The notes beneath the pieces were generated by a model that was not told the origin of the DNA, ran no database searches, and worked only from the letters and a program-made list of their open reading frames with translations. From an uncultured Bifidobacteriaceae bacterium (GTDB lineage Bacteria; Acidobacteriota; Vicinamibacteria; Vicinamibacterales; UBA2999): a DNA stretch of 64,000 nucleotides. Below, one piece after another: positions 9,184-61,555 of the stretch. Positions within the stretch are counted from its first letter, which is position 1, and each line of letters opens with the position of its first letter. The stretch covers positions 25,576 to 89,575 of the forward strand of contig CAZDLW010000001.1 of the NCBI GenBank assembly GCA_964505975.1. The letters are read 5' to 3'. The position numbers and the translations under genes are program-made.

Positions 9184-11715
9184 ATGACGCACGGCAGGCG
9201 ATCCCGGTGGACGCACATGATGGCTGGTGCGCTCGTCATGCTTCCCGTGATGACGGCACATGACTGGTCCGGGTCGGCGTCGGCTATCCACCCGCACGTC
9301 GAGCCGGAATCCGTATTGGCGTCTGCCTCGTCCGCGCATGTCCCGGCCCGGGTGGTTGCGGCTCAGGCGGGTCCGTCACAACAGAGCGGTCCCGTCTCGT
9401 CGCGCGCGTCGCAGGAGGCGCTCTTCGCCCGCTACTGCGTTGCCTGTCACACGGCGCAGCAGCGACAGCGCGGTGTGGTGCCGATTGCACTGGATTCGCT
9501 CGAGTTGTCCGACGTCGCGGCCGACGGCGACGCATGGGAGCGGGTCGTGCGGAAGATGCGGGCGGGTCTCATGCCGCCTCCCGGGATGCCGCGTCCCGAT
9601 CGTGCCAGCCACGACGCCTTCGTCGCATGGCTGGAAGACGAGCTCGATCGCGCCAGCCGTGCGAACCCGAATCCGGGACGGACGGAGCCGCTGCACAGAC
9701 TCAATCGGACCGAGTACCGGAATGCGATCCGCGACCTGCTCGACCTGGACATCGACGTGGCGTCACTGCTCCCGGCCGACGATGCCAGCTACGGCTTCGA
9801 CAACATCGCAGGCGTGTCGAAGATCTCGCCGACACTGCTGGAACGATATCTGGCGGCCGCCCAGCGGATCAGCCGTGCGGCCGTTGGTACCGTACCACCG
9901 GCGCCGACCATCGACTACTTCCGCGTGGCTGACGACCTCGCGCAGGATCGCCGCCTGCCGGGGCTGTCGTTCGGCACTCGAGGCGGCACGCTGATTCGGT
10001 ACCTGTTTCCGGTGGACGCGGAGTACGAAATCCGTGTCGATCTCGCGCGCGACCTGAATGAGCAGGTCCCCATCTACGCCGAGCCACAGCACCTGGAAGT
10101 CAGTATCGACGGTGAACGCGTACAGGTCTTCACGTTACCTGGCGTGCAGCAGACGGGGCGGGGCGGCGGACGAGGGGCGCAGCAGGAGCGAAACCGTGCG
10201 GATCAGGACTGGGTGGTCCGGGTGCCCGTCGAGGCGGGTACCCGTGACGTGCAGGTCGCCTTCATCCAATTGACGGCGGCAATTGCCGAGACCGCCCGAC
10301 TTCCGTTTGTCCGTCCGTACCCGGCGGGGGTGAACATCGGTGAAACACGCACAGGCGCCTATCTGCGCAGCGTGGAGATCAGTGGCCCATACGATGCGTC
10401 CGGACCGGGAGACTCGCCCAGCCGGCGGCGCATCTTCGCCTGCCAGCCGGCTTCGCACGCGGATGAGTCCTCGTGCGCGCAAGCCATTGTGACCGATCTG
10501 GCGCGGAGCGCATTCCGGAGGCCTGTGACGGAGGAGGACGTGGAGCCCCTGCTCGCGTTCTACGATGAGGGGCATCGCGCAGGTGGATTCGAGGCCGGGA
10601 TTGAACGTGCGCTCCGGCGGCTGCTGGTCAGCCCCGAGTTCCTGATGCGCGTCGAAAGCGAGCCACCGGACGCGGCACCGGGTACGACGTATCGCATCAG
10701 CGAGTTGGAACTGGCGTCGCGACTGTCTTTCTTCCTGTGGAGCAGCATTCCCGACGACGAGCTGTTGAGGCTGGCCCAAGAGAAACAGCTCCGCGACCCC
10801 GAGGTCCTGGACCAGCAGATCCGCCGGATGCTGAACGATCGACGGTTCAGCGCGTTCGTCGAGAACTTTGCCGGTCAGTGGCTGTTCCTCAGGAACCTGC
10901 CGGCCGCGGTTCCGGTCCAGGCCAATTTTCCGGATTTCGACGACAGCCTGCGACAGGCCTTCCGCCGCGAGACGGAGCTCTTCTTCGAGAGTGTGGTGCA
11001 GGAGGACCGCAGCGCCCTGGATCTGTTGCGCGCGGACTATACATTTCTCAACGAACGGCTGGCGCGGCACTACGGAGTCCCGAACGTGAAGGGGAGCCAC
11101 TTCCGGCGGGTCCAGCTGGAGCCGCAGGTGAGGCGGAGAGGGCTGTTCGGTCACGGGAGCATCCTTACCGTGACGTCGTATCCTGATCGGACCTCGCCGG
11201 TCGTCCGTGGGAAGTGGATACTCGAGAACCTCCTGGGCACACCTCCACCGGAGCCACCACCGGATGTCCCGGAGCTGGAAGCACCGAGTTTCGCTGGAGA
11301 GGTGCTCTCCATGCGCGAGCGGATTGCACAGCACCGCCAGAATCCGGTGTGTGCGAGCTGTCATTCCATGATGGATCCGCTTGGCCTGGCGCTCGAGAAC
11401 TATGACGCCGTGGGCAAGTGGCGGACGATCGATGAATCGGGTGCACGGATCGACGCCTCCGGGGCGTTGCCGGACGGAACGCCGTTTGAAGGAGCGGATG
11501 GGCTCATAGACGCGCTGTTGGGCACGGACACGTTCATCACGACGTTGACGGAGAAGATGCTCATCTATGCACTGGGTCGCGGCCTCGAGTACTATGATGC
11601 GCCAACGATCCGGGCCATCGTCCGCGATGCCGCTCGCGACGACTATCGCCTGTCATCGCTCATCCGGAGCATCGTCCGGAGTACGCCCTTCCAGATGAGG
11701 AGATCGGAATCATGA
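9184..11715 (+). CDS. DUF1592/DUF1588-family heme-motif protein
   Basis: ATG 9184 within ORF 9112..11715. It has CVACH (CxxCH) near the N-terminus and the characteristic C-terminal HRQNPVCASCHSMMDPLGLALENYDAVGKWR motif. Confidence 0.8.
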   Translation: MTHGRRSRWTHMMAGALVMLPVMTAHDWSGSASAIHPHVEPESVLASASSAHVPARVVAAQAGPSQQSGPVSSRASQEALFARYCVACHTAQQRQRGVVPIALDSLELSDVAADGDAWERVVRKMRAGLMPPPGMPRPDRASHDAFVAWLEDELDRASRANPNPGRTEPLHRLNRTEYRNAIRDLLDLDIDVASLLPADDASYGFDNIAGVSKISPTLLERYLAAAQRISRAAVGTVPPAPTIDYFRVADDLAQDRRLPGLSFGTRGGTLIRYLFPVDAEYEIRVDLARDLNEQVPIYAEPQHLEVSIDGERVQVFTLPGVQQTGRGGGRGAQQERNRADQDWVVRVPVEAGTRDVQVAFIQLTAAIAETARLPFVRPYPAGVNIGETRTGAYLRSVEISGPYDASGPGDSPSRRRIFACQPASHADESSCAQAIVTDLARSAFRRPVTEEDVEPLLAFYDEGHRAGGFEAGIERALRRLLVSPEFLMRVESEPPDAAPGTTYRISELELASRLSFFLWSSIPDDELLRLAQEKQLRDPEVLDQQIRRMLNDRRFSAFVENFAGQWLFLRNLPAAVPVQANFPDFDDSLRQAFRRETELFFESVVQEDRSALDLLRADYTFLNERLARHYGVPNVKGSHFRRVQLEPQVRRRGLFGHGSILTVTSYPDRTSPVVRGKWILENLLGTPPPEPPPDVPELEAPSFAGEVLSMRERIAQHRQNPVCASCHSMMDPLGLALENYDAVGKWRTIDESGARIDASGALPDGTPFEGADGLIDALLGTDTFITTLTEKMLIYALGRGLEYYDAPTIRAIVRDAARDDYRLSSLIRSIVRSTPFQMRRSES

Positions 11716-13079: not shown

Positions 13080-13098
13080 GACTGTTCGGTTTCCTTAA

Positions 13099-13296
13099 TC
13101 CCGGAGCTCAGTGGGGTTGCGACGGAGCGGCGACCTCCGACTCGCGCGACACCAGTCGGGCAAAACGCATCTGGAGCGTGAGGACCGAGCTGGGTTGCGG
13201 GACCCAGCTCTGGTCGCTGGTCGCCGGTGAAGGATGCGTTTTACCGCGCGGAGTCGTCGGGAGCCCGCCCCGTTGCAACTCCACTGAGCTCCGGGA
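13099..13296 (-). repeat. Family-1 element, copy B (inverted orientation)
   Basis: Terminal arms CCGGAGCTCAGTGG (13101-13114) and CCACTGAGCTCCGG (13281-13294). The reverse complement aligns along its full length with copy C. Confidence 0.85.
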
Positions 13297-13450
13297 CCTA
13301 ACCCCCCGGACTCGTCCTGGACGCGAGCACACGTCGGAGCAGGCCGACTGGTGAGGCGCGTAACACGCCTCGGTGCAGCGAGTCTTCCGAGGCGGGTCTG
13401 CTGAGGCAGACCGAGGCGCGCCAGGGTCGACGCAGAATGCAGGATTCAGA

Positions 13451-20916: not shown

Positions 20917-21051
20917 ACCAGCCAAGGGGCTCTGCCCCGTGATATCTCCGCAGAGCCCCTCGGCTGGTTGCCAGTATCTCTTTGCCGCTAGGACCGCTAT
21001 GGGGACCGACAAACGAGTACAAAATTCGCGTTCCGGGCCGCATAGCGGTCC
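20916..21051 (+). repeat. Family-2 conserved intergenic element, copy A (possible cis-regulatory leader)
   Basis: Hairpin 20916-20934/20951-20969 (18/19), shared block CGGCTGGTTGCCAGTATCTC (20961-20980), and an 11-bp helix GGACCGCTATG/CATAGCGGTCC (20991-21001/21041-21051) enclosing ACAAACGAGTACAAAATTCGCGTTCC. A second copy lies at 36002-36210. Confidence 0.7.
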
Positions 21052-21061
21052 AACGCTCGCG

Positions 21062-24533: not shown

Positions 24534-24592
24534 AGGCTGCGCCTCGGACCCGCAAGCATGTCGGCGGCGGCTCCGTCTCGCCAAGGCTACGG
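24529..24592 (+). repeat. Family-3 ~60-nt hairpin repeat (REP-like), copy 1
   Basis: CTAGAGGCTGCGCCTCGGACCCGCAAGCATGTCGGCGGCGGCTCCGTCTCGCCAAGG. It closely resembles the reverse complement of 49507-49567 and the split copy at 26738-26756 + 26949-26993. Confidence 0.7.
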
Positions 24593-26737: not shown

Positions 26738-26993
26738 AGCGAGGCTCCGCCTACACCGGACCTCACTCGAGTTGCGACGGGGCGGGCTCCCGACGACGTC
26801 GCGCGGTAAAACGCATCCTCCACCCGCGGCCGGCGACCCGAGCTGGGTCCCGCAACCCAGCTCGGTCTTCACGTTCCGGATGCGTTTCGCCCCACTGCTG
26901 TCGCGCGAGTCGTAGGTCGCCGTCCCGTCGCAACTCAACTGAGCTCCGTGATTGGGACCCGCGGGCATGTCGGCGGCGGCTCCCTCTCGCTGG
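26738..26993 (+). repeat. Family-3 hairpin repeat interrupted by a Family-1 element (composite)
   Basis: The left half CAGCGAGGCTCCGCCT (26738-) and right half GGGACCCGCGGGCATGTCGGCGGCGGCTCCCTCTCGCTGG (-26993) match the two halves of the 24529-24592 repeat. They are separated by the Family-1 copy. Confidence 0.7.
26757..26948 (+). repeat. Family-1 element, copy C
   Basis: Arms CGGACCTCACTCGAGTTGCGACGG / CCGTCGCAACTCAACTGAGCTCCG. The core is nearly identical to copy A, and the apex GACCCGAGCTGGGT-cccgca-ACCCAGCTCGGTC is retained. Confidence 0.85.
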
Positions 26994-32565: not shown

Positions 32566-32636
32566 AGATTCCTCCCTGTCACGAACCAGCGGATTATACG
32601 CGGCCGTTCCCCGGGCGACGAGGAATCGCGAAGCCG

Positions 32637-32825
32637 GGTGCCGGCGGCCGGCATGCTGGGCTGGCTCCCGATGACCTCACGCGGAAAAACGCGCCCTCCG
32701 CTCGAGGGGCGACGACCCGCGCTGGTCCGTGACCAGCGCGGCTCTCACGCTGCGGGCGCGTTTTACCCGGTCCGGATCGCGCGAGTCGTAGGTCGCGGCG
32801 TCCAGCATGCCCGGCCGCCGGCACC
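32637..32825 (+). repeat. Family-1 element, copy D (divergent, compensatory variant)
   Basis: Outer helix 32638-32659 / 32802-32824 (~22 bp). The conserved blocks GGCTCCCGATGAC...CGCGGAAAAACGC and GCGTTTTACC...ATCGCGCGAGTCGTAGGTCGC are present. The apex is 32714-32727/32731-32744. Confidence 0.8.
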
Positions 32826-32892
32826 GGCGTCGCTGCACCAACACAAGTGAGCACCGTGGACAGTGCAGAGCGCGTCTCGAGGCGGAGCTTCC

Positions 32893-34023: not shown

Positions 34024-36024
34024 CTACAGGAAGAATCCGTACGTCAGCATCAACTCCTGCAGCCACATCATCCACGTGAGGCTCCACTTGAGGCTGGCCT
34101 CGCGGGCGCGAGGCTGGAGGGTCTGGCTGTTGTTCGTGTAGTTCACGTCGAGCAGCAGTACGCGCTCGGGATCGATCCGCACCGTCGATGCCGGCGTCGG
34201 TCGTTCGTACTCGTAGACGACGCGCCGATCCACGCCGTCCCAGCGCTCCCGCACCTCTGCGCCGTCGGCGAACGTCGTGACGACATCGACGGGGAAGACC
34301 GCGTCGCCGACGCGCTGCACGACCACGGTCGTGCGGTGATTCCCGTTGGCCATGCGCTCGGTTGCGAGCTCCTGCACGCCGTAGTCGAAGACACCCGATC
34401 CGCGATGCACCTGGTCGAAGAACCACGTCAGATCCTGTCCGCTCACTTCGTTGGCGATGTCGAAGAAGTCGTCCGGCTGGGGGTGTCTGAACTTCCAGCG
34501 GTCGAAGTACGTGGCCAGGATCTGCTGCATGACCGGCCAGCCGACATGACGCTCGAGTGTGTGCAGCCAGAGCGCCGTCTTGCTGTACGTGATTGCGGTG
34601 GCGGTCGTCGGCCAGTACTGCCAGGTCGGCGTTGCAGGCGTGTCGGCGCTCGGTGCTTCGCGATACCGCGCCAGGCCGTTGCCGTCCGTGGCACGTTGCA
34701 GGCGGATGTCGTGAAGGACCCAGGGAACGAACCCACCGAAATACCGCAGCGCCAGGCGGTTCGGGAGTGCGATCTCGTCGATCAGTCGCGCGCCCGCGTA
34801 CGCCGTCAGCCCCTCGTCCATCCACGCGTGTTCCACCTCGTTGGTGCCGACGATCCCGTGCCAGAACTGGTGTCCGACTTCGTGAATCGTGACGCTCTCC
34901 GGTACGCTGACGCGTCGCGGCGCCAGCCAGCGGGAACCGGCGGTCAAGAGCGTCGGATACTCCATCCCCTGGCTCCCGCTCTGATACGCCGGATCGACGA
35001 TGGTCAGGTGCCCATATGGATAGGGACCGAACCACTCGCCGAAGTGCTGCAGCGTGGCCGCCGCTGCGGAGAAGTGGCGGTCTGCCTGTCCACGGTGCTC
35101 GGGCTGGAGCATGAGACGCATCTCCACGCGCGGCAACGCCGGATGCTCGAACGGTCGGCGCAGGTCGATGAACCGCGGGCTCGCCGTCCACGCGAAGTCG
35201 GCGATGTCCTCCCCGCGATACCGATGGGTTACGGTGCCGTCGGCGTTGTCGGTGCGCCCCGTTTCGCGGCCGGACGCGGCAACGACAAAGGGGCGAGGGA
35301 GAGTGATGCGAACGTCGAACTCCGCGTAGTCGGCGTAGAACTCCGTGTGCGAGTGGAACTGGTGGGCCTTCCACCCTCCGTCCTCCAGCACCCCCATTCT
35401 CGGGAACCAATGTGCGATGAAGTAGTAGTCGCCAATCCATCCCACCCGGATGCGTGTGAACGGCGCGGGAATCCGTGCGGCCCACTCGATATCGAGCTCG
35501 ACCGTGTCGTGCGGTCTCACCACGAAGGGCAGCGGGACCGCCAGCACCGTCCGGTCCGCGTCGTTGCCATCGTCGGGTGCGATGTAGCGCGCACTCGGTG
35601 TCAGGTTCAACGGCGGTCCGTCCGGCGTACGCAGGCGAATCGCCGAGAGGTCGATGGCGCCGACGTGTTCCGGACGCGATGGCAACGTGCCTCCGGCGCG
35701 CCGGTGTCCGCGGAACCATGTCGAGTCGAGATCGCGCCAGGCGTTCCAGTACAGCTGCAACCGCACCTCATCCGTCTCGTAGGCGCTGATGTTCCTCCAG
35801 CGGATCGTCTGTCGTCCGTCCAGCCTCCGTTGCCCGTGGTCGAGACGGACGTCGATCTCGTAGCGGGCGTTGCGCGGCGACAGCCCCTCCGGCCCCGGAT
35901 GGTCGAAGCTCTGTACGGACGGCGGACGCCCCTGCTCGCCTCGTACACTGGTCCCTGACACGATGGCGAGCGCGCAGACGCACGCAATGGCTACGCACCA
36001 GCCAGCCACGGGGCCCCTCCCCAT
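34024..36024 (-). CDS. Secreted M1-family zinc aminopeptidase
   Basis: ATG 36024 within ORF 34024..36084 gives signal peptide MGRGPVAGWCVAIACVCALAIV. It has the HEVGHQFWHG...WMDEGL gluzincin motif. Confidence 0.8.
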   Translation of the reverse strand: MGRGPVAGWCVAIACVCALAIVSGTSVRGEQGRPPSVQSFDHPGPEGLSPRNARYEIDVRLDHGQRRLDGRQTIRWRNISAYETDEVRLQLYWNAWRDLDSTWFRGHRRAGGTLPSRPEHVGAIDLSAIRLRTPDGPPLNLTPSARYIAPDDGNDADRTVLAVPLPFVVRPHDTVELDIEWAARIPAPFTRIRVGWIGDYYFIAHWFPRMGVLEDGGWKAHQFHSHTEFYADYAEFDVRITLPRPFVVAASGRETGRTDNADGTVTHRYRGEDIADFAWTASPRFIDLRRPFEHPALPRVEMRLMLQPEHRGQADRHFSAAAATLQHFGEWFGPYPYGHLTIVDPAYQSGSQGMEYPTLLTAGSRWLAPRRVSVPESVTIHEVGHQFWHGIVGTNEVEHAWMDEGLTAYAGARLIDEIALPNRLALRYFGGFVPWVLHDIRLQRATDGNGLARYREAPSADTPATPTWQYWPTTATAITYSKTALWLHTLERHVGWPVMQQILATYFDRWKFRHPQPDDFFDIANEVSGQDLTWFFDQVHRGSGVFDYGVQELATERMANGNHRTTVVVQRVGDAVFPVDVVTTFADGAEVRERWDGVDRRVVYEYERPTPASTVRIDPERVLLLDVNYTNNSQTLQPRAREASLKWSLTWMMWLQELMLTYGFFL

Positions 36025-36210
36025 GCTATCCCCGCCGATCCCCGCGGCTGGTTGCCAGTATCTCCTCCCCCCACCGCGACGCACGCGTGCGCCGTGGGGA
36101 CCCCGGCTTGCCGCGCTTCGCGCGGCTAGGACCGGCTGGGACCGCTATGCCGCCGGAAGTCACGACACACAACGAGAACGAAATTCGCGTTCCTGGCCGC
36201 ATAGCGGTCC
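36002..36210 (+). repeat. Family-2 conserved intergenic element, copy B
   Basis: Same order of blocks as copy A: hairpin 36002-36013/36040-36051, CGGCTGGTTGCCAGTATCTC (36045-36064), GCTAGGACCG, and helix 36139-36149/36200-36210 around ACAACGAGAACGAAATTCGCGTTCC. It carries extra inserted hairpins (e.g. GCCGCGC-ttc-GCGCGGC). Confidence 0.7.
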
Positions 36211-53243: not shown

Positions 53244-54377
53244 ATGGCCAAGGCAAAGAATCGAGCCCCGGCACGTTCTTCCAGTCGCTCACCCCAGGGC
53301 AGGCCCGCGGGTGGCTCCGGGAGGAGCGGGCGAGTTCTCCGGAATGCGTCCAAGGAACGGACGGGCTCCGCGAGCGTGAATCCACGCACCGGCGTGCGCG
53401 CGTCGGTCCCACGGCGGACCTCCGCGGCCACGGATCCCGGGCGTGTGAATCGGGGGCGCGGCACTCGCGAGGTGCGCCCGGACGGCGGTGGCACTCTCGC
53501 CCGAGAGGCCACAGCACGAGCGAGCCGCGCGCGCGAATCGTTCGTCGCGGCGAACGAGACGAGCCCGGCTGTGTCACCGGCACCGCATGGGCAGAAAGCC
53601 GAGGCCGGCGACCATGGACGCTACGTCTACTGCATCATCCGCTCGACCAGCCCGCTGAGGTTCGGCCCAATCGGCATCGATGGACAGTCGCCGGAGGTGT
53701 ACACCGTCACCTACAAGGACATGGCCGCGGTCGTCTCCGACGTGCCCATCGCTCCACTGGACAGCACCAGGGAGCACGTGCTCGCGCACGAACGCGTGAA
53801 CGAGACCGTGATGCGCGGTCATACGGTCATCCCGATGTCCTTCGGCACGATCTTCAAGACGTCGGACGACATCGTCGAGCTCCTCCGGTCTGCCTACGAG
53901 GCGTTTGCGGACGTGCTCGACAAGATGCGCGACAAGCTGGAGTACGGCCTCAAAGTCCTGTGGGATCGCGACGAGATCGTGCGCGCCATCGAGCAGGAGG
54001 ACGAGGACATCCATCGGCTCAAGCGCGAGATCGCCTCGCAGAAGGGCTCGACGTATTTCGCGCGCATGCAGTACGGGCGGCTCATCGACACCGCGTTGCA
54101 GCATCGGTCGGAGCGGTACGTGGCCGAGTTCCTTCACCGACTGCGGAGCGTGTCCGTGGCTTCGCGGGTGAATCGCGCCATTGGCGACAAGATGATCATG
54201 AACGCCGCGTTTCTCGTGCAGCGCGATCAGGAGCGGGCGTTCGATCGGCGAATCAAGGAAATCGCGTCGGCGTTCGAGAGCCTGACGTTCAGGTATACGG
54301 GACCGTGGCCACCGTACAACTTCGTCAATATTCGGCTCAAGCTCGAGCGGGCGGGCCCGCCCGGAAAGACGGAGTGA
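53244..54377 (+). CDS. gvpF: GvpL/GvpF-family gas vesicle protein with Arg/Ser/Gly-rich N-terminal extension
   Basis: The core from YVYCIIRS (about nt 53619) to YTGPWPPYNFVNI matches GvpL_GvpF family motifs (AAVVSDV, VIPMSFGTIF). The first ~125 codons are low-complexity. An alternative GTG start is at 53571. Confidence 0.75.
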   Translation: MAKAKNRAPARSSSRSPQGRPAGGSGRSGRVLRNASKERTGSASVNPRTGVRASVPRRTSAATDPGRVNRGRGTREVRPDGGGTLAREATARASRARESFVAANETSPAVSPAPHGQKAEAGDHGRYVYCIIRSTSPLRFGPIGIDGQSPEVYTVTYKDMAAVVSDVPIAPLDSTREHVLAHERVNETVMRGHTVIPMSFGTIFKTSDDIVELLRSAYEAFADVLDKMRDKLEYGLKVLWDRDEIVRAIEQEDEDIHRLKREIASQKGSTYFARMQYGRLIDTALQHRSERYVAEFLHRLRSVSVASRVNRAIGDKMIMNAAFLVQRDQERAFDRRIKEIASAFESLTFRYTGPWPPYNFVNIRLKLERAGPPGKTE

Positions 54378-54378
54378 C

Positions 54379-54582
54379 GTGTTCGGTCTCGACTCCTTTC
54401 TCGGCTGGGTGCTACGCACCGTGACCGCTGCGGCACAGGCCGAGCTGAACGACGACTCGGAGCTGCGCGAACGGTTGCTGGAAGCCGAGCTCCGGCGTCA
54501 CGCGGGGGGGATCTCCGACAGCGACTTCACGGTCATCCCGATGTCCTTCGGCACGATCTTCAAGACGGCGGACGAGTTGTAA
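54379..54582 (+). CDS. gvpG: GvpG-like protein with a C-terminus replaced by a duplicated GvpF segment
   Basis: GTG start 1 nt after the gvpF stop. MFGLDSFLGWVLRTVTAAAQAELNDDSELRERLLEAELRRHAGGISDSDF resembles GvpG. The last 16 codons duplicate 53823-53869. Confidence 0.55.
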   Translation: MFGLDSFLGWVLRTVTAAAQAELNDDSELRERLLEAELRRHAGGISDSDFTVIPMSFGTIFKTADEL

Positions 54583-56028: not shown

Positions 56029-59000
56029 TCAGTCCCCGTCGAGCGTATCGTCCCGGTCCACCTCCGATGCCGCGCTATCGGGGTCCACATCGCGACTCGT
56101 GGCCCCATCGGATCCCGCGGCATCGTCTCGTCGGACCCGTTCTGGGGTCTCCTCCGGGTGTTCAGAGCTCCGATTGGCAGCCGTGGGTTCGACTCCCGGC
56201 GTGTCCTCGGGCCCTGCCATGTCGTCACCCGCGCGCGTCGGTGTCCGATTCGCCCCTGTCTGTTTCGTGTCCATTGACGTGCCTCCATGGCCTGGCGGCA
56301 ACGGGTCGACACTCGTGCCCGTGGCCGCTTCGATCTCCTGTACTCCCCGGTAACCAGTAGGGCGTATCCGTTCGGTCCGAAGCTGCAGGCCCATCGCGGT
56401 TCTTGCGAATCCGGCTTCGACGAAGACCGGCGCCGCGGGATGTTGCGTGGCCGGATGCGCGTTGATCGCGCTGATGAGCAGGCCCCGGCGCCCTTCCTCA
56501 CGCGTTGACGCGAACCGGATGAGACAGCGCGCGAGCGCGTCGATCATGCGGGACCAGAGCGGGTTGTCGCGGGACACGAAGAGCAGCAGGTCGCGCTCGT
56601 TGCGCCGGAGATAGCCGGCTGCGAATCCGCTCACCAGGATCGCCACCGCACCCGCGATCCGTGTCGGCCCGCGCCCGGGCGTCTCCGGGCGGGCCCCCGC
56701 CGACTCACCTCGATCGTCGGTGCGGCCCCCCGACTCGGACAGGAGTTCGGGCCACGGCACAATCGAACCATAGGGGTTTGCCGGATCCGTGGCTGCAAGG
56801 GCCACGGCCGTCAGCGTGTCTGGCGCATCGCGCAGCGACCGGATCGACTCCAGGGCCCCACCCATTGCGAATTGAGCAGCGCCCAGGCCCGCGACGAAAT
56901 AGCCCCGCTGGATGCGTCCAGCGTGTTCCATGGCTGTGAGCACAGGGTAGATGGCCGCGAAGCCGCCGGGGATGGCCTCGGCCAACGCCGCTTCCCGGGT
57001 CACGATGCCATATCGTCTCAGAAGCTGTCGCGCCACTGCCGCGCCCCATTCCGTGACACTTCGCCGATGGGTGATTGCGGAGTCGAGCAGGGACCAGCGT
57101 CCCGTGGCTGTCGGCGGAACGGCCGGGCGGGCGTGCTGCGATATCCCCCGGCGGCGGCGATCGTGAGCCCGGTCGACATCCACATAGGCGCGCAGGGGGT
57201 GCAGGGTGTCGTTGGTGACCACCCCCTGCCAGACGAGATCCCATAGGGCATCGACGGTGTCCTGGGGGAACCCGCCCCCGGTTCCGTGATGAATGGGGGC
57301 GAAGAACGACGCCCCGTGGCGCTGCAAGTAGGCGCGGACGTGGGCCGCCCGGTCTGTCATGACGGCCTCCGACTCTGGCGGGGAACCCGCCGGCCTGCCC
57401 ATCGTGACTGGCGCCCTCAGTTGATCCAGGTGTTCGGCCCGGTAGAGCACAATCCGGCCATCCTTGTCGCCGAGGCGCTCGACGCCGGCCCACACCACGA
57501 CTCCAGTGCCCATCAGCCCATCGAGCATCTCGCGGCGATAGCCGTGCACGCGCGCGGGGAGGATGTCGTCCTCGAGCATCGAGGCCGGGAGTGGTGCCCC
57601 CTGGAGCTGATCGATGGCGTCGAGCAGCGCATCGATGCCCTGTCTCGCAGCGCCGATCGCGTGCCAGCTCACCAGGAACCGGCCGAGTGCGTCCGCGTCT
57701 ACGGGCTCGATCTCCTCGCGCAATCGAGCCAGCGAGCGTCGTCGCAGCGTGTGGAGCACTCCTGGATCGACCCATTCCCGTTCGACGCCACGCGGGCGGA
57801 ACTCACCTTCCACCAGGCGGCCTTGTTCGACGAGCCGCCGAAGAAGGGCAATCGTGGCAGCACGCTCGAACCCGTATCGAGCCGCGAGATCCCCGGCGGC
57901 GAACGGCCCATGCGATCGGGCATAGCGGAGCACGATGTCTGCCGTCGCCTCGGGAACCGGGGCGAGAAACGCCTTCGGAAGTCCCGCTGGAAGGCGCACT
58001 GCGATCGCGTCGCGGTACCTGGCCGCGTCCTCCGCGGCGAGGTACCGCTCTCCGCCGCCAATGGTCAGCCGCAGGATGCGCTGTGCGCGCTCGAGATCCG
58101 CCGCCGCGGCGCGCGTGTCGGGCAAGGCGCTGCGCGCCTCGAGCTCGGCCGGCGACAGGTCCCCAATGCGCATTAGCAGATCGTGGAGGCCGTCGGCGGA
58201 TCGAACGCGGTAGCGCTCGTCGAGGTGTTGCAGCTGACGTTCGAGTGTGGCGAGGGCCTCGGGATTCAGCAGTTCCCGCAACTCGGCATCGCCAATGAGC
58301 TCACGAAGCTGGGCCTGATCGACCGACAGCGCCTGCGCACGCCGCTCGGCCAGCGGGGCATCGCCGTCATAGATGTAATTGGCGACGTAGCTGAAGAGCA
58401 GTGATGCGGCGAACGGTGACGGCCGTTGCGCGTCGGTAGCCGCAACGTGCACGGCGCCGTCCACCACGCGTCGCAGGATGTCGACGAGTCCTCGCATGTC
58501 GAAGTGATCGTGCAGGATCTCGCGATATGTTTCGAGCAGCACCGGAAACGAACCAAAGCGAGACGCCGCGGCGAGCAGGTCGGTTGCCCGCTTGCGCTGC
58601 TGCCACAGCGGGGTGCGGAGGCCGATGCGGCGGCGTGGCAGAAGCAAGGCGCGCGCCGCGGCTTCACGGAACCGCGCCGCGAAGAGTGCCGTGGCATGGA
58701 GCTGCCGCAGGACAAGCGCTTCGACGTTGTCCGGGTCGAGAAGCAGCCAGCCGGGATCCGGTGCCGTGTCCGTGCTTGGCACGCGCACGACGAACCCATC
58801 GTCGCCCCACAGGGCTTCCACGTCCAGGCCCGTGCGCTCCCGGATCTGTGCCGTGACCGCCATGGCCCATGGTGCGTGTACGCGGCTACCCAAGGGGGAG
58901 AGCAGACAGACGCGCCAGTCGCCGAGCTCGTCCCGGCATCGCTCGATCGCAACGGTGCGATCGTCGGGCACGGTGCCCGCGGCTGCCTGTTCGTCGAGGT

Positions 59001-61194
59001 AGCGCACCAGCATCTCGGCGGCGGCGGCAGTCAGATCGTGCCGGCGCCCGAGGCGATCGAGTGCTGCCGGGTAGGGCAACTCCCGCAGCTCGCGCACGAG
59101 CGCTCCAATCGCGAGACCCAGCTCGACGGACCGACCCGCCTGATCTCCGTGCCAGAAGGGCATCTTCCCTGGCTCTCCGGGTGCCGGCGAGACGAGCACC
59201 CGGTCGTGCGTGATCTTCTCGACGCGCCACGTCGAGGCTCCCAGAACGAAGGTCTCTCCGCGCCTGGTCTCGAAGACCATTTCTTCGTCGAGTTCACCCA
59301 CACGAACGGGACGCGTGGCGCCCGCGAGGAAGACACCATACAGTCCTCGGTCCGGAATGGTGCCCGCATTCGCGATGGCGACGTGTCTGGCTCCCGTTCG
59401 CGCGGCGATCGTGTGACGCAGACGGTCCCACGTGAGGCGTGGACGTAGCTCCGCGAACGCGTCCGAAGGGTAGCGGCCCGACAACATGTCCAGCACTCCC
59501 TCGAACATGCGCCGGCTCAGACTCGCGAACGGCGCTGCGCACCGGACCAGTGCAAAGAGGGTATCGACATGCCACGTGTCCATGGCGGCGATGGCGACAA
59601 GCTGCTGTGCGAGCACATCGAGCGGATTTCGTGGGTAACGCGTGGCTTCGACGGCACCGTCGTGCATCGCGCGCGCCAGGGCTGCGCAGGCAACCAGGTC
59701 CCCTCGGAATTTCGGAAACATGATTCCCGCACTCGTCTCGCCGACACGGTGACCCGCGCGGCCGATGCGTTGGAGTCCGCTCGCCACCGACGGCGGCGCT
59801 TCGACTTGCACCACCAGATCCACCGCACCCATGTCGATCCCGAGCTCCAGGGAAGATGTTGCGACGAGCGCCTTGAGCTGGCCCGTCTTCAACAGCTCTT
59901 CCACCTCCGCGCGCGTGTCCGGCGCCAGGGAGCCATGATGCGAGCGCACGAGCGTCTCACCCGCGAGCTCGTTGAGCGAGCCGGCCAGCCGCTCGGCCAG
60001 GCGACGGTTGTTCACGAAGAGCAGTGTGGAGCGATGCGAGCGGATCAGATCGAGCAGCCTGGGATGAAGCGAGGACCAGATCGACCGGGGCGCATCGGGC
60101 GCGCGACGGCCTCGCCGTGGACGGGCGGGGGGTGACGATCGAGGAATGGCGCCTGGGTCTCGTGCGAGGACCTCTGCGGGCACGTCGACGCACAGCGACA
60201 GCGGCTTGTCGTCTGATGCGTCGACGATCGTGACCGGCCGAAACCTCGCCCCGATGCCCTCGTCGCCGAACTCGGCGTGAATCCGGGCCGCCACGTGATC
60301 GAGCGGTTCCTTACCGCGTGGTGAATTCGCGCGTGAAGCCGCAGAGCGGTCCAGGGCGCCGCCGCCGGACGATCGTTGGCGGGGCGGCTGGATCTCGAGT
60401 CCGCCGAGGAAGCGTGCGACTTCCTCGAGGGGCCGCTGTGTGGCCGACAGTCCAATGCGCTGCAGGGGCCGGCGGGTGGAAGGCGCTGCAACATCGTCGG
60501 ATCTCGATCGTCCGTCCGGACGTTTCGGTCGACGCTGTCCGTCAGGGATGGAAGAAGACCTCCATGACGAGCGTAACCATCGTGGCGCGGGCGCCGGGCG
60601 ATCGAGGGAGGGAGGCGCCCCGGTTCGCAGCGCCTCGAGTCGTTCCAGCGACAGTGCCAGATGGGTGCCCCGCTTGCTCGCCGCCATCGCGTGGATCTCG
60701 TCGACGATGACCGTGTCCACCGCCGCGAGCCGTTGGCGTGCGTTCGACGTGAGCAACAGGTACAGCGACTCGGGAGTCGTAATCAGGATGTCGCCGGGCT
60801 CCCGCAGAAAGCGCGCACGATCGCGAGCCGGCGTATCGCCCGTTCTCATCGCAATGTCCGGTATCGTCACGGGGACGTTCCGGGTGTGCGCGAGGTCGGC
60901 AATGGCGGCCAGCGGACTTCGCAGGCTGCGTTCCACGTCCGCCGCCAGCGCCTTGAGTGGGGAGATGTACAGGACCCGGCAGCGCTCTCCCCGTGCCGGT
61001 GTCGGCTCGAAGAGCAGCCGATTGAGACACCAGAGAAAGGCTGCAAGCGTCTTTCCGGCACCCGTTGGTGCCAGGATCAGCGTCGATTCGCCACGCGCGA
61101 TTGCCGGCCAGCCCCGTAGCTGTGCCGTCGTGGGCCCGGGAAAGACGCCGGAGAACCACTCGCGCACGACTGGATGAAAGAGGGCGAGGCTCAC
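56029..61194 (-). CDS. lhr: Lhr-family large ATP-dependent DEAD/DEAH-box helicase
   Basis: GTG 61194 gives MSLALFHPVVREWF, a typical Lhr start. Motifs: Walker A APTGAGKT, VIVDEIHAM, SHHGSLA, TSSLELGID, QRIGRAGH. The long C-terminal domain is followed by an acidic disordered tail. Confidence 0.85.
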   Translation of the reverse strand: MSLALFHPVVREWFSGVFPGPTTAQLRGWPAIARGESTLILAPTGAGKTLAAFLWCLNRLLFEPTPARGERCRVLYISPLKALAADVERSLRSPLAAIADLAHTRNVPVTIPDIAMRTGDTPARDRARFLREPGDILITTPESLYLLLTSNARQRLAAVDTVIVDEIHAMAASKRGTHLALSLERLEALRTGAPPSLDRPAPAPRWLRSSWRSSSIPDGQRRPKRPDGRSRSDDVAAPSTRRPLQRIGLSATQRPLEEVARFLGGLEIQPPRQRSSGGGALDRSAASRANSPRGKEPLDHVAARIHAEFGDEGIGARFRPVTIVDASDDKPLSLCVDVPAEVLARDPGAIPRSSPPARPRRGRRAPDAPRSIWSSLHPRLLDLIRSHRSTLLFVNNRRLAERLAGSLNELAGETLVRSHHGSLAPDTRAEVEELLKTGQLKALVATSSLELGIDMGAVDLVVQVEAPPSVASGLQRIGRAGHRVGETSAGIMFPKFRGDLVACAALARAMHDGAVEATRYPRNPLDVLAQQLVAIAAMDTWHVDTLFALVRCAAPFASLSRRMFEGVLDMLSGRYPSDAFAELRPRLTWDRLRHTIAARTGARHVAIANAGTIPDRGLYGVFLAGATRPVRVGELDEEMVFETRRGETFVLGASTWRVEKITHDRVLVSPAPGEPGKMPFWHGDQAGRSVELGLAIGALVRELRELPYPAALDRLGRRHDLTAAAAEMLVRYLDEQAAAGTVPDDRTVAIERCRDELGDWRVCLLSPLGSRVHAPWAMAVTAQIRERTGLDVEALWGDDGFVVRVPSTDTAPDPGWLLLDPDNVEALVLRQLHATALFAARFREAAARALLLPRRRIGLRTPLWQQRKRATDLLAAASRFGSFPVLLETYREILHDHFDMRGLVDILRRVVDGAVHVAATDAQRPSPFAASLLFSYVANYIYDGDAPLAERRAQALSVDQAQLRELIGDAELRELLNPEALATLERQLQHLDERYRVRSADGLHDLLMRIGDLSPAELEARSALPDTRAAAADLERAQRILRLTIGGGERYLAAEDAARYRDAIAVRLPAGLPKAFLAPVPEATADIVLRYARSHGPFAAGDLAARYGFERAATIALLRRLVEQGRLVEGEFRPRGVEREWVDPGVLHTLRRRSLARLREEIEPVDADALGRFLVSWHAIGAARQGIDALLDAIDQLQGAPLPASMLEDDILPARVHGYRREMLDGLMGTGVVVWAGVERLGDKDGRIVLYRAEHLDQLRAPVTMGRPAGSPPESEAVMTDRAAHVRAYLQRHGASFFAPIHHGTGGGFPQDTVDALWDLVWQGVVTNDTLHPLRAYVDVDRAHDRRRRGISQHARPAVPPTATGRWSLLDSAITHRRSVTEWGAAVARQLLRRYGIVTREAALAEAIPGGFAAIYPVLTAMEHAGRIQRGYFVAGLGAAQFAMGGALESIRSLRDAPDTLTAVALAATDPANPYGSIVPWPELLSESGGRTDDRGESAGARPETPGRGPTRIAGAVAILVSGFAAGYLRRNERDLLLFVSRDNPLWSRMIDALARCLIRFASTREEGRRGLLISAINAHPATQHPAAPVFVEAGFARTAMGLQLRTERIRPTGYRGVQEIEAATGTSVDPLPPGHGGTSMDTKQTGANRTPTRAGDDMAGPEDTPGVEPTAANRSSEHPEETPERVRRDDAAGSDGATSRDVDPDSAASEVDRDDTLDGD

Positions 61195-61257
61195 TAACAG
61201 AAGTCTAACGAGGCTCCGCCTCGGACCGCCTTGCAAAGAACCATGCTGCCTTTGTCG

Positions 61258-61285
61258 TTGAGCAAGGGCTGTCGACTCGTATAAT
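61258..61285 (+). promoter_or_regulatory. sigma70-like promoter candidate
   Basis: TTGAGC (61258-61263), a 16-nt spacer, then TATAAT (61280-61285). The ATG at 61295 is only 9 nt downstream, so the mRNA would be near-leaderless. Confidence 0.4.
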
Positions 61286-61294
61286 CGAAGGAAC

Positions 61295-61555
61295 ATGGGT
61301 GACGCTGGAGAAGGCCTCGTCGACGCGGAATCCCGCCTCGCCGAGCGCATGGAAGAACGCGAACAAGAACGACGCGCTGCGCGCTTGAAAGGGAAGAGCA
61401 CCGATCCCGAGCGCGCGCGGCAGCTCGAATCGCTGCGACTCGCGAGGACCGAGATGGAGCGCCAGCTCGGGCTGGCGACGCAAGAAGCCCGGAAGCAGCA
61501 GCTGGGCCAGGCGATTGCGGAGATCGATCGCCGCATCGTCGAGTTGTCGAACTGA
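61295..61555 (+). CDS. Small charged coiled-coil hypothetical protein (86 aa)
   Basis: The ATG ORF has Glu/Arg-rich heptad-like sequence (AESRLAERMEEREQERRAARL...). It has a promoter-like motif upstream. No family recognised. Confidence 0.45.
   Translation: MGDAGEGLVDAESRLAERMEEREQERRAARLKGKSTDPERARQLESLRLARTEMERQLGLATQEARKQQLGQAIAEIDRRIVELSN

Follow-up and report, generated by a model that had tools for sequence, protein, structure and literature searches.

A family of long, covarying hairpin repeats in an acidobacterial genome that probably represents mobile DNA

Compensatory changes are common in the hairpins of REPINs, which are mobile DNA, and single-stranded DNA folds have been predicted for these repeats (Bertels and Rainey, PMC3116915). 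Covariation between paired positions is therefore not a hallmark specific to RNA genes. Among the RAYT-like TIRYT transposases, an Acidobacteria-specific group has been described, some with matching TIR repeat families (Di Nocera et al., PMC3733652). In the DNA stretch analysed here (64 kb; hereafter the window) and in related sequences we characterised eight distinct copies of a long hairpin, Family 1, four of which (A-D) lie in the window, while the other four (L7, L7b, L20 and L28) come from an Acidobacteriota MAG and soil metagenomes. Family 1 is a previously unannotated family, probably a new one of a known type, the bacterial MITE/REPIN-like hairpin repeats, among which it is unusual in being long and in combining a conserved core with variable ends.

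Like REPINs, Family 1 consists of intergenic, multi-copy, non-coding hairpin DNA that carries boxes on both arms and shows compensatory changes. It differs from them in being two to three times longer, in the low copy number seen, and in the position of its boxes, which are found in mid-stem and are followed outward by another, variable stem. The GTAG (or CGTC) end tag of REPINs is not conserved: we found GTAG in copies C and D, GGAG in B, L7, L20 and L7b, ATAG in L28 and GTCG in A. Inspection of Family 1 by eye did not reveal GGGGWSAS, the motif of TIRYT TIRs. With MITEs, which measure less than ~600 bp, the family shares its shortness, its non-coding nature, its dispersal and its presence or absence at orthologous sites. 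The counterpart of the terminal inverted repeats of MITEs is the whole element, which is one inverted repeat (in copy B, for example, CCGGAGCTCAGTGGAGTTGC pairs with GCAACCCCACTGAGCTCCGG). In contrast to TIR-bounded MITEs, Family 1 is most conserved in mid-stem and not at its ends, which is unusual. We know of no parent IS of Family 1.

ERIC/IRU, Correia/NEMIS, RUP and BOX elements are likewise small, non-coding, dispersed, long imperfect hairpins that occupy transcribed intergenic DNA in either orientation and vary in their presence from strain to related strain, but Family 1 has no sequence similarity to them, no conserved termini and no visible target-site duplication. Two kinds of DNA sites, integron attC and the sso of single-stranded DNA plasmids, function as a folded single strand. 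They resemble Family 1 in conserving structure over sequence and in their asymmetric extrahelical features. However, they are fixed in orientation and context (cassette arrays, plasmids), whereas Family 1 is chromosomal, dispersed and found in both orientations, without an integrase or Rep gene nearby. Finally, Family 1 shares covarying helices, conserved loops and a junction with the structured RNAs of Rfam, but it lacks syntenic conservation, G.U is not tolerated in its stems and it keeps no fixed strand relative to genes.

Copy A is a ~285-nt hairpin on the + strand (346-630, core 425-553), which begins directly after a stop codon and lies between two + strand genes. Copy B (~13098-13305, - strand) is located between DUF1552 and ankyrin/cytochrome c genes (both +), and copy C (~26757-26945, + strand) between DUF4149 and isocitrate dehydrogenase genes (both -). 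The size of the element is ~190-290 bp, and no copy holds an ORF that shows a coding signal. Copies B and C are 87-88% alike across their whole length, outer arms included, which indicates that the arms belong to the moving unit. The outer arm of copy C bears uncompensated changes.

An exact pattern of the 3' block was scanned against ~185,000 species genomes and gave 17 loci, only one of which (L007) was real; the other 16 were chance matches in coding DNA. The real locus belongs to an uncultured Acidobacteriota MAG (ERZ25039498, contig_18388), and its extension to a 21-kb locus (L041) revealed a second full copy at 9376-9554, the eighth of the family (L7b). The exact 5'-block pattern gave 18 loci in the metagenome collection, of which three were real and two identical (L020 = L033; L028). 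No further copies were present in the related contigs L038-L040 and L042-L044 (~95 kb total), and neither two viral-contig scans nor BLAST against plasmids and phages produced a match. Searches of Rfam with the whole window and with copies A, B and D, run at the gathering score and permissively, yielded 0 matches at the gathering score; the sub-threshold matches were to generic miRNA-precursor hairpin models only, the best being MIR918 with 31 bits against a gathering score of 268.

We folded seven copies jointly with RNAalifold and obtained one long fold-back of 64 pairs. From the outside inward it consists of a variable outer stem, the mid-stem, an AAAACGCnnCC/GGnnGCGTTTT helix, a junction and a conserved apex hairpin. 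The outer stem (20-50 bp) evolves fast and is variable yet paired. The mid-stem is conserved in sequence, CC.ACGAC.TCGCGCGG pairing with TCGCGCGA.GTCGT.GG. Its boxes, ACGAC-n-TCGCGCG and CGCGCGA-GTCGT, enclose an inner domain of ~85 nt with covarying pairs, and 8/8 copies carry the TCGCGCGA box unchanged in their 3' arm. The junction is a three-way one; its 5' side opens with CCTCC(A/G)C and usually includes a small variable hairpin. The remaining parts are a 3' loop with an invariant TCACG and a 3' bulge of fixed position and variable sequence. All eight copies are asymmetric in the same manner, with a 3' bulge of ~12 nt and internal loops of ~20 nt on the 5' side and ~12 nt on the 3' side. 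A candidate pseudoknot, in which the 5' internal loop would pair with the variable bulge on the 3' side, was rejected; it beat shuffled sequences in only one of the eight copies.

Copy D, the subject of the sequence-only reading that preceded this analysis, is an imperfect hairpin of ~190 nt on the + strand. Relative to copy A it carries paired substitutions under which the fold is retained. The interval originally reported (32637-32825) is its well-paired part, and pairing extends outward past the outer helix to ~32628-32834, the full fold-back. The outer helix is formed by GTGCCGGCGGCCGGCATGCTGG (32638-32659) and CCAGCATGCCCGGCCGCCGGCAC (32802-32824), with a single bulged G. Inside it, the 5' conserved block and the 5' strand of the mid-stem helix occupy 32663-32684 (GGCTCCCGATGAC CTCACGCGG), and the 3' conserved block with the 3' strand of that helix occupies 32776-32796 (ATCGCGCGAGTCGTAGGTCGC, which includes the self-complementary TCGCGCGA). 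The two blocks described as nearly invariant could be located at 32663-32675 and 32776-32796. The AAAACGCnnCC strand (32686-32696) pairs with the GGnnGCGTTTT strand (32754-32764), and this helix contains two covarying pairs. The 5' internal loop (32697-32713) starts with the conserved CCTCC(A/G)C, beyond which it is variable and holds a short local hairpin in most copies. It is followed by the apex hairpin (32714-32744), composed of 14-nt arms and a CGT loop and containing one C.C mismatch, and by the 3' internal loop (32745-32753) with the invariant TCACG. The bulge of ~12 nt on the 3' side (32765-32775) is kept in position in all copies, but not in sequence. Compared with shuffled sequence, copy D folded with z-scores of -7.5 (+ strand) and -7.9 (- strand) as RNA and of -6.6 (+ strand) and -7.9 (- strand) as DNA.

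The strings quoted in the sequence-only reading were found at the places given, and its double changes were recovered. In the apex, three pairs differ on both arms between A and D (A:T to C:G, G:C to T:A and T:A to C:G; GACCCGAGCTGGGT/ACCCAGCTCGGGTC in A versus GACCCGCGCTGGTC (32714-32727)/GACCAGCGCGGCTC (32731-32744) in D), and two further double changes distinguish the next helix (AAAACGCAT/ATGCGTTTT in A versus AAAACGCGC/GCGCGTTTT in D). The homology of two of the apical double changes is less certain because of an adjoining 3-nt loop deletion. The apex of D also contains one uncompensated C.C mismatch (5' C32716 versus 3' C32742), which had been overlooked. The outer helix of D indeed measures ~22 bp, but its description as completely different is justified only by comparison with A and B/C: in the metagenomic copies L20 and L28 and in L7b, the outer helix is recognisably its homologue (GGCGGCCG...CGGCCGCC).

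In the seven-copy alignment, 89.9% of the cells were paired. Changes on both sides occurred at 23 of the 64 pairs, compared with 13.7±2.1 in column shuffles, none of which reached 23 (0/500). When the partners were slid by 1-3 columns, only 4-10 pairs remained changed on both sides. In the eighth copy, L7b, an otherwise invariant A:T pair of the mid-stem was converted to G:C by a double substitution. Covariation thus lies well above the shuffle and slide controls, and we agree with the sequence-only reading that evolution preserves pairing over sequence. That reading had taken the covariation further, as a sign of a structured RNA under selection or of arm-to-arm correction.

A transcript under selection is expected to tolerate G.U on its own strand only. 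We defined the helices with G.U forbidden, so that the mismatch test was strand-neutral. The eight hairpins together contained ~743 Watson-Crick pairs, and their single mismatches were 9 G.T, 10 A.C and 14 other. At internal positions of the consensus helices we counted 231 Watson-Crick pairs, 2 G.T, 1 A.C and 5 other. G.U accounted for ~1% of the stem positions and was not commoner than A.C; the stems of the eight hairpins showed neither G.U enrichment nor strand bias. Both strands folded about equally well, and the strand opposite to that of the sequence-only reading was slightly better in five of seven copies.

Between B and C, the closest copies (87% identical), 13 paired positions differ. 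There is no compensated change among them, and at 10 a pair is disrupted, mostly in C. Between subfamilies the number of compensated pairs was 9-15 if A, B or C was involved and 2-8 among D, L7, L20 and L28. The uncompensated differences of B and C indicate that pairing decays in resident copies and is kept only along propagating lineages. Such decay speaks against an RNA that would serve the host at every single locus, and also against continuous arm-to-arm repair in place.

The proteins most similar to those of the window are labelled Acidobacteriota or Vicinamibacterales. We compared the window with syntenic contigs of related species, among them L038 (82-86% nucleotide identity to the window) and L040 (~76%). 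At site D the spacer of L038 measures 46 nt, and the window carries an insertion of 243 extra nt that includes copy D (32602-32844, with a boundary ambiguity of 1 nt). Filled and empty site D showed no duplication beyond this 1-nt ambiguity; sites B and C were too diverged to align. Site C spans 127 nt in L038 compared with ~300-350 nt in the window, and it is unoccupied in L039 too. Site B spans 31 nt in L040, and its flanking genes abut in L042, L043 and L044, while the window has a spacer of ~290-370 nt (depending on the start of the ankyrin gene) that holds the ~200-nt element. The element is therefore an insertion, being absent from the orthologous spacers of related species at B, C and D, which are all three testable sites.

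A TATAAT box ~30 nt upstream of the start of a 280-aa gene is conserved in the window (32566-32601) and in L038 (4172-4217). The D insertion ends right beside this box, which suggests that it replaced the former -35 sequence of a putative promoter.

All copies are intergenic, and seven of the eight lie a few to ~120 nt downstream of a stop codon. Copy A is in sense orientation. The neighbours of B, C and D are likewise co-directional, but these three copies are antisense to them. The genes that flank L7 and L28 converge, and those that flank L20 diverge. A Pfam scan of ~40 of the ~42 called window genes identified no transposase, and there was no RAYT/TIRYT (Y1/HUH) gene in the 64-kb window and no RAYT (Y1/HUH) gene in the 21-kb L041 locus. 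No conserved terminus could be defined across the copies, and the termini differ between subfamilies.

Our data show that Family 1 is an insertion whose presence varies from species to related species and which occurs in either orientation, that subfamilies differ by Watson-Crick double changes that keep the pairing, and that the inserted copies decay. We consider it probable (roughly 60%) that Family 1 is a non-autonomous mobile palindromic DNA repeat of the MITE/REPIN kind, with the fold-back, probably as single-stranded DNA, as the form that is moved. The fold-back, most likely exposed as single-stranded DNA at replication, would be the substrate of a transposase, and a trans-acting, structure-recognising enzyme would read the fold together with the conserved mid-stem box. 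HUH/Y1 transposition is expected to produce no target duplication. As no such duplication can be seen and conserved termini are lacking, our best guess for the enzyme would be one of the HUH/Y1 group, RAYT/TIRYT type (IS200/IS605-RAYT), in preference to a DDE transposase. Only lineages whose arms still pair would be copied, the transposition step itself being the filter. Such a copying filter would give rise to the compensatory pattern of copy D without the need for an RNA function. Several points count against the mobile-repeat reading: the scanned window genes yielded no autonomous partner, neither a target-site duplication nor a conserved terminus emerged, conservation peaks in mid-stem, no more than eight copies were recovered (with exact patterns, the family was found in only one of ~185,000 species genomes and in three metagenome contigs), and conserved asymmetric loops and a three-way junction would also be expected of a functional RNA.

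The conserved asymmetric core, that is the mid-stem box, the three-way junction and the CCTCC/TCACG loops, might form a specific recognition structure. It would then be either the cargo of an undescribed structure-specific transposase of the HUH/TIRYT type or a mobile module that takes on an RNA-level role after its insertion (e.g. as an RNase III site or mRNA insulator); we put this forward as a tentative and rather doubtful proposal. If the transposase-cargo version were true, Family 1 would be a REPIN-like replicator of Vicinamibacteria-type Acidobacteriota, much larger and more elaborate than the REPINs of proteobacteria.

A second, unrelated family of hairpin repeats occurs in the window at 20924-21059 and 35996-36208, with partial similarity at 60313-60358. 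It is built of two modules, CCAGCCAAGGGGCTCTGC...GCAGAGCCCCTCGGCTGG followed by GGACCGCTATG...CATAGCGGTCC. Both full copies are precise insertions missing from the syntenic contig L038, and one of them lies directly after a stop codon. The absence of this second family from a relative, too, indicates that the genome hosts active hairpin repeats.

The leading alternative to mobile DNA is a structured RNA with a function of its own. It could be an sRNA gene in several copies or an element that acts in cis on mRNAs, and selection on the transcript would keep its fold. In a variant of this explanation the long hairpin could serve as an RNase III processing site or 3'-end stabiliser, possibly domesticated from a repeat. 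The strong covariation speaks for such an RNA, as do the conserved unpaired CCTCC and TCACG, the asymmetric bulge and the junction with its variable local hairpin. So does the intergenic position of the copies, most of them just after stop codons, where they are probably co-transcribed. ERIC and Correia/NEMIS hairpin repeats have been reported to act at the RNA level. However, Family 1 is absent from the orthologous spacers of relatives, its orientation relative to transcription varies and it has no Rfam match. Scans of the shared core for the consensus of a sigma-70-type promoter or of an intrinsic terminator were negative; the sole terminator match was weak, specific to D and on the minus strand, and A, B and C had none in the core that they share. 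Moreover, the two strands behave alike, G.U at ~1% is no commoner than A.C (9 G.T and 10 A.C), and uncompensated stem changes have piled up in copy C. Taken together, these findings speak against the step from covariation to a structured RNA that the sequence-only reading had made, and we regard a functional RNA as improbable.

Its second suggestion, arm-to-arm correction, corresponds to neutral homogenisation in place. The arms of a quasi-palindrome would be made to match by template switching, or by repair after a hairpin or cruciform has formed, and the structure would be under no selection. It is well established that mutation by template switching at quasipalindromes can bring arms to match (PMC7202029, PMC8604942), and the Watson-Crick-only, strand-symmetric complementarity of Family 1 speaks for this process. 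Nevertheless, B and C differ by 10 one-sided pair-breaking changes, of which 0 have been corrected, and homogenisation would erase the asymmetric bulge and loops that are kept in 8/8 copies. We judge this explanation very unlikely. An equally slim chance is left to an element spread by duplication that would be either a bidirectional terminator/insulator cassette or an operator whose palindromic TCGCGCGA is recognised by a dimeric DNA-binding protein: AAAA...TTTT encloses the inner domain on both strands, copies lie after stop codons and between convergent genes, and TCGCGCGA is invariant in all eight 3' arms, but the shared core contains no canonical match of a stem plus U-tract, the T-run comprises four bases only and is itself paired, A and L20 lie upstream of genes, and neither role accounts for a 20-50-bp outer stem that is variable yet paired.

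The main value of these results is methodological, as the covarying positions of a mobile palindrome can be mistaken for the signal of an RNA. Genome-wide RNA discovery should therefore be aware that compensatory changes also arise in mobile DNA hairpins, where the copying of the element is the filter. Three cheap checks separated RNA from DNA here: empty orthologous sites, the symmetry of G.U and A.C, and whether the differences between the closest copies are compensated or uncompensated. The analysis also documents two hairpin-repeat families in a poorly studied soil phylum. Repeats of this kind break short-read assemblies, and they could serve as strain markers.

In the MAG locus L041, two inverted Family-1 copies, 9376-9554 (+) and 10832-11084 (-), bracket a truncated gene (271 aa) for a MacB/FtsX-type permease. 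The arrangement may be comparable to a composite transposon, stem from an insertion into the gene or be due to chance. Many genes of this MAG are split, which suggests long-read indel errors.

Further repeats were observed in the window. A 36-nt direct repeat (GGACCCGCrrGCATGTCGGCGGCGGCTCCsTCTCGC, 92% identical) is present in two intergenic spacers, at 24546-24581 and at 26955-26990, the latter immediately 3' of copy C, and may constitute a third small repeat family. Near the flank of copy C, two Logan contigs, L036 and L037 (SRR9906330 and SRR9906329), which encode an isocitrate dehydrogenase identical to that of the window, start 80 nt upstream of the gene; these contig starts probably mark a short-read assembly break at the copy C repeat. 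A 47-nt direct repeat (98% identical) occurs at 53823-53869 and 54529-54575, 706 nt apart. One copy lies within a GvpL/GvpF gas-vesicle gene (53244-54377) and the other just past the gene, and the repeat may reflect paralogous gvp genes. On the - strand, a large ORF of 1835 aa (56029-61536) has a coding-type GC3.
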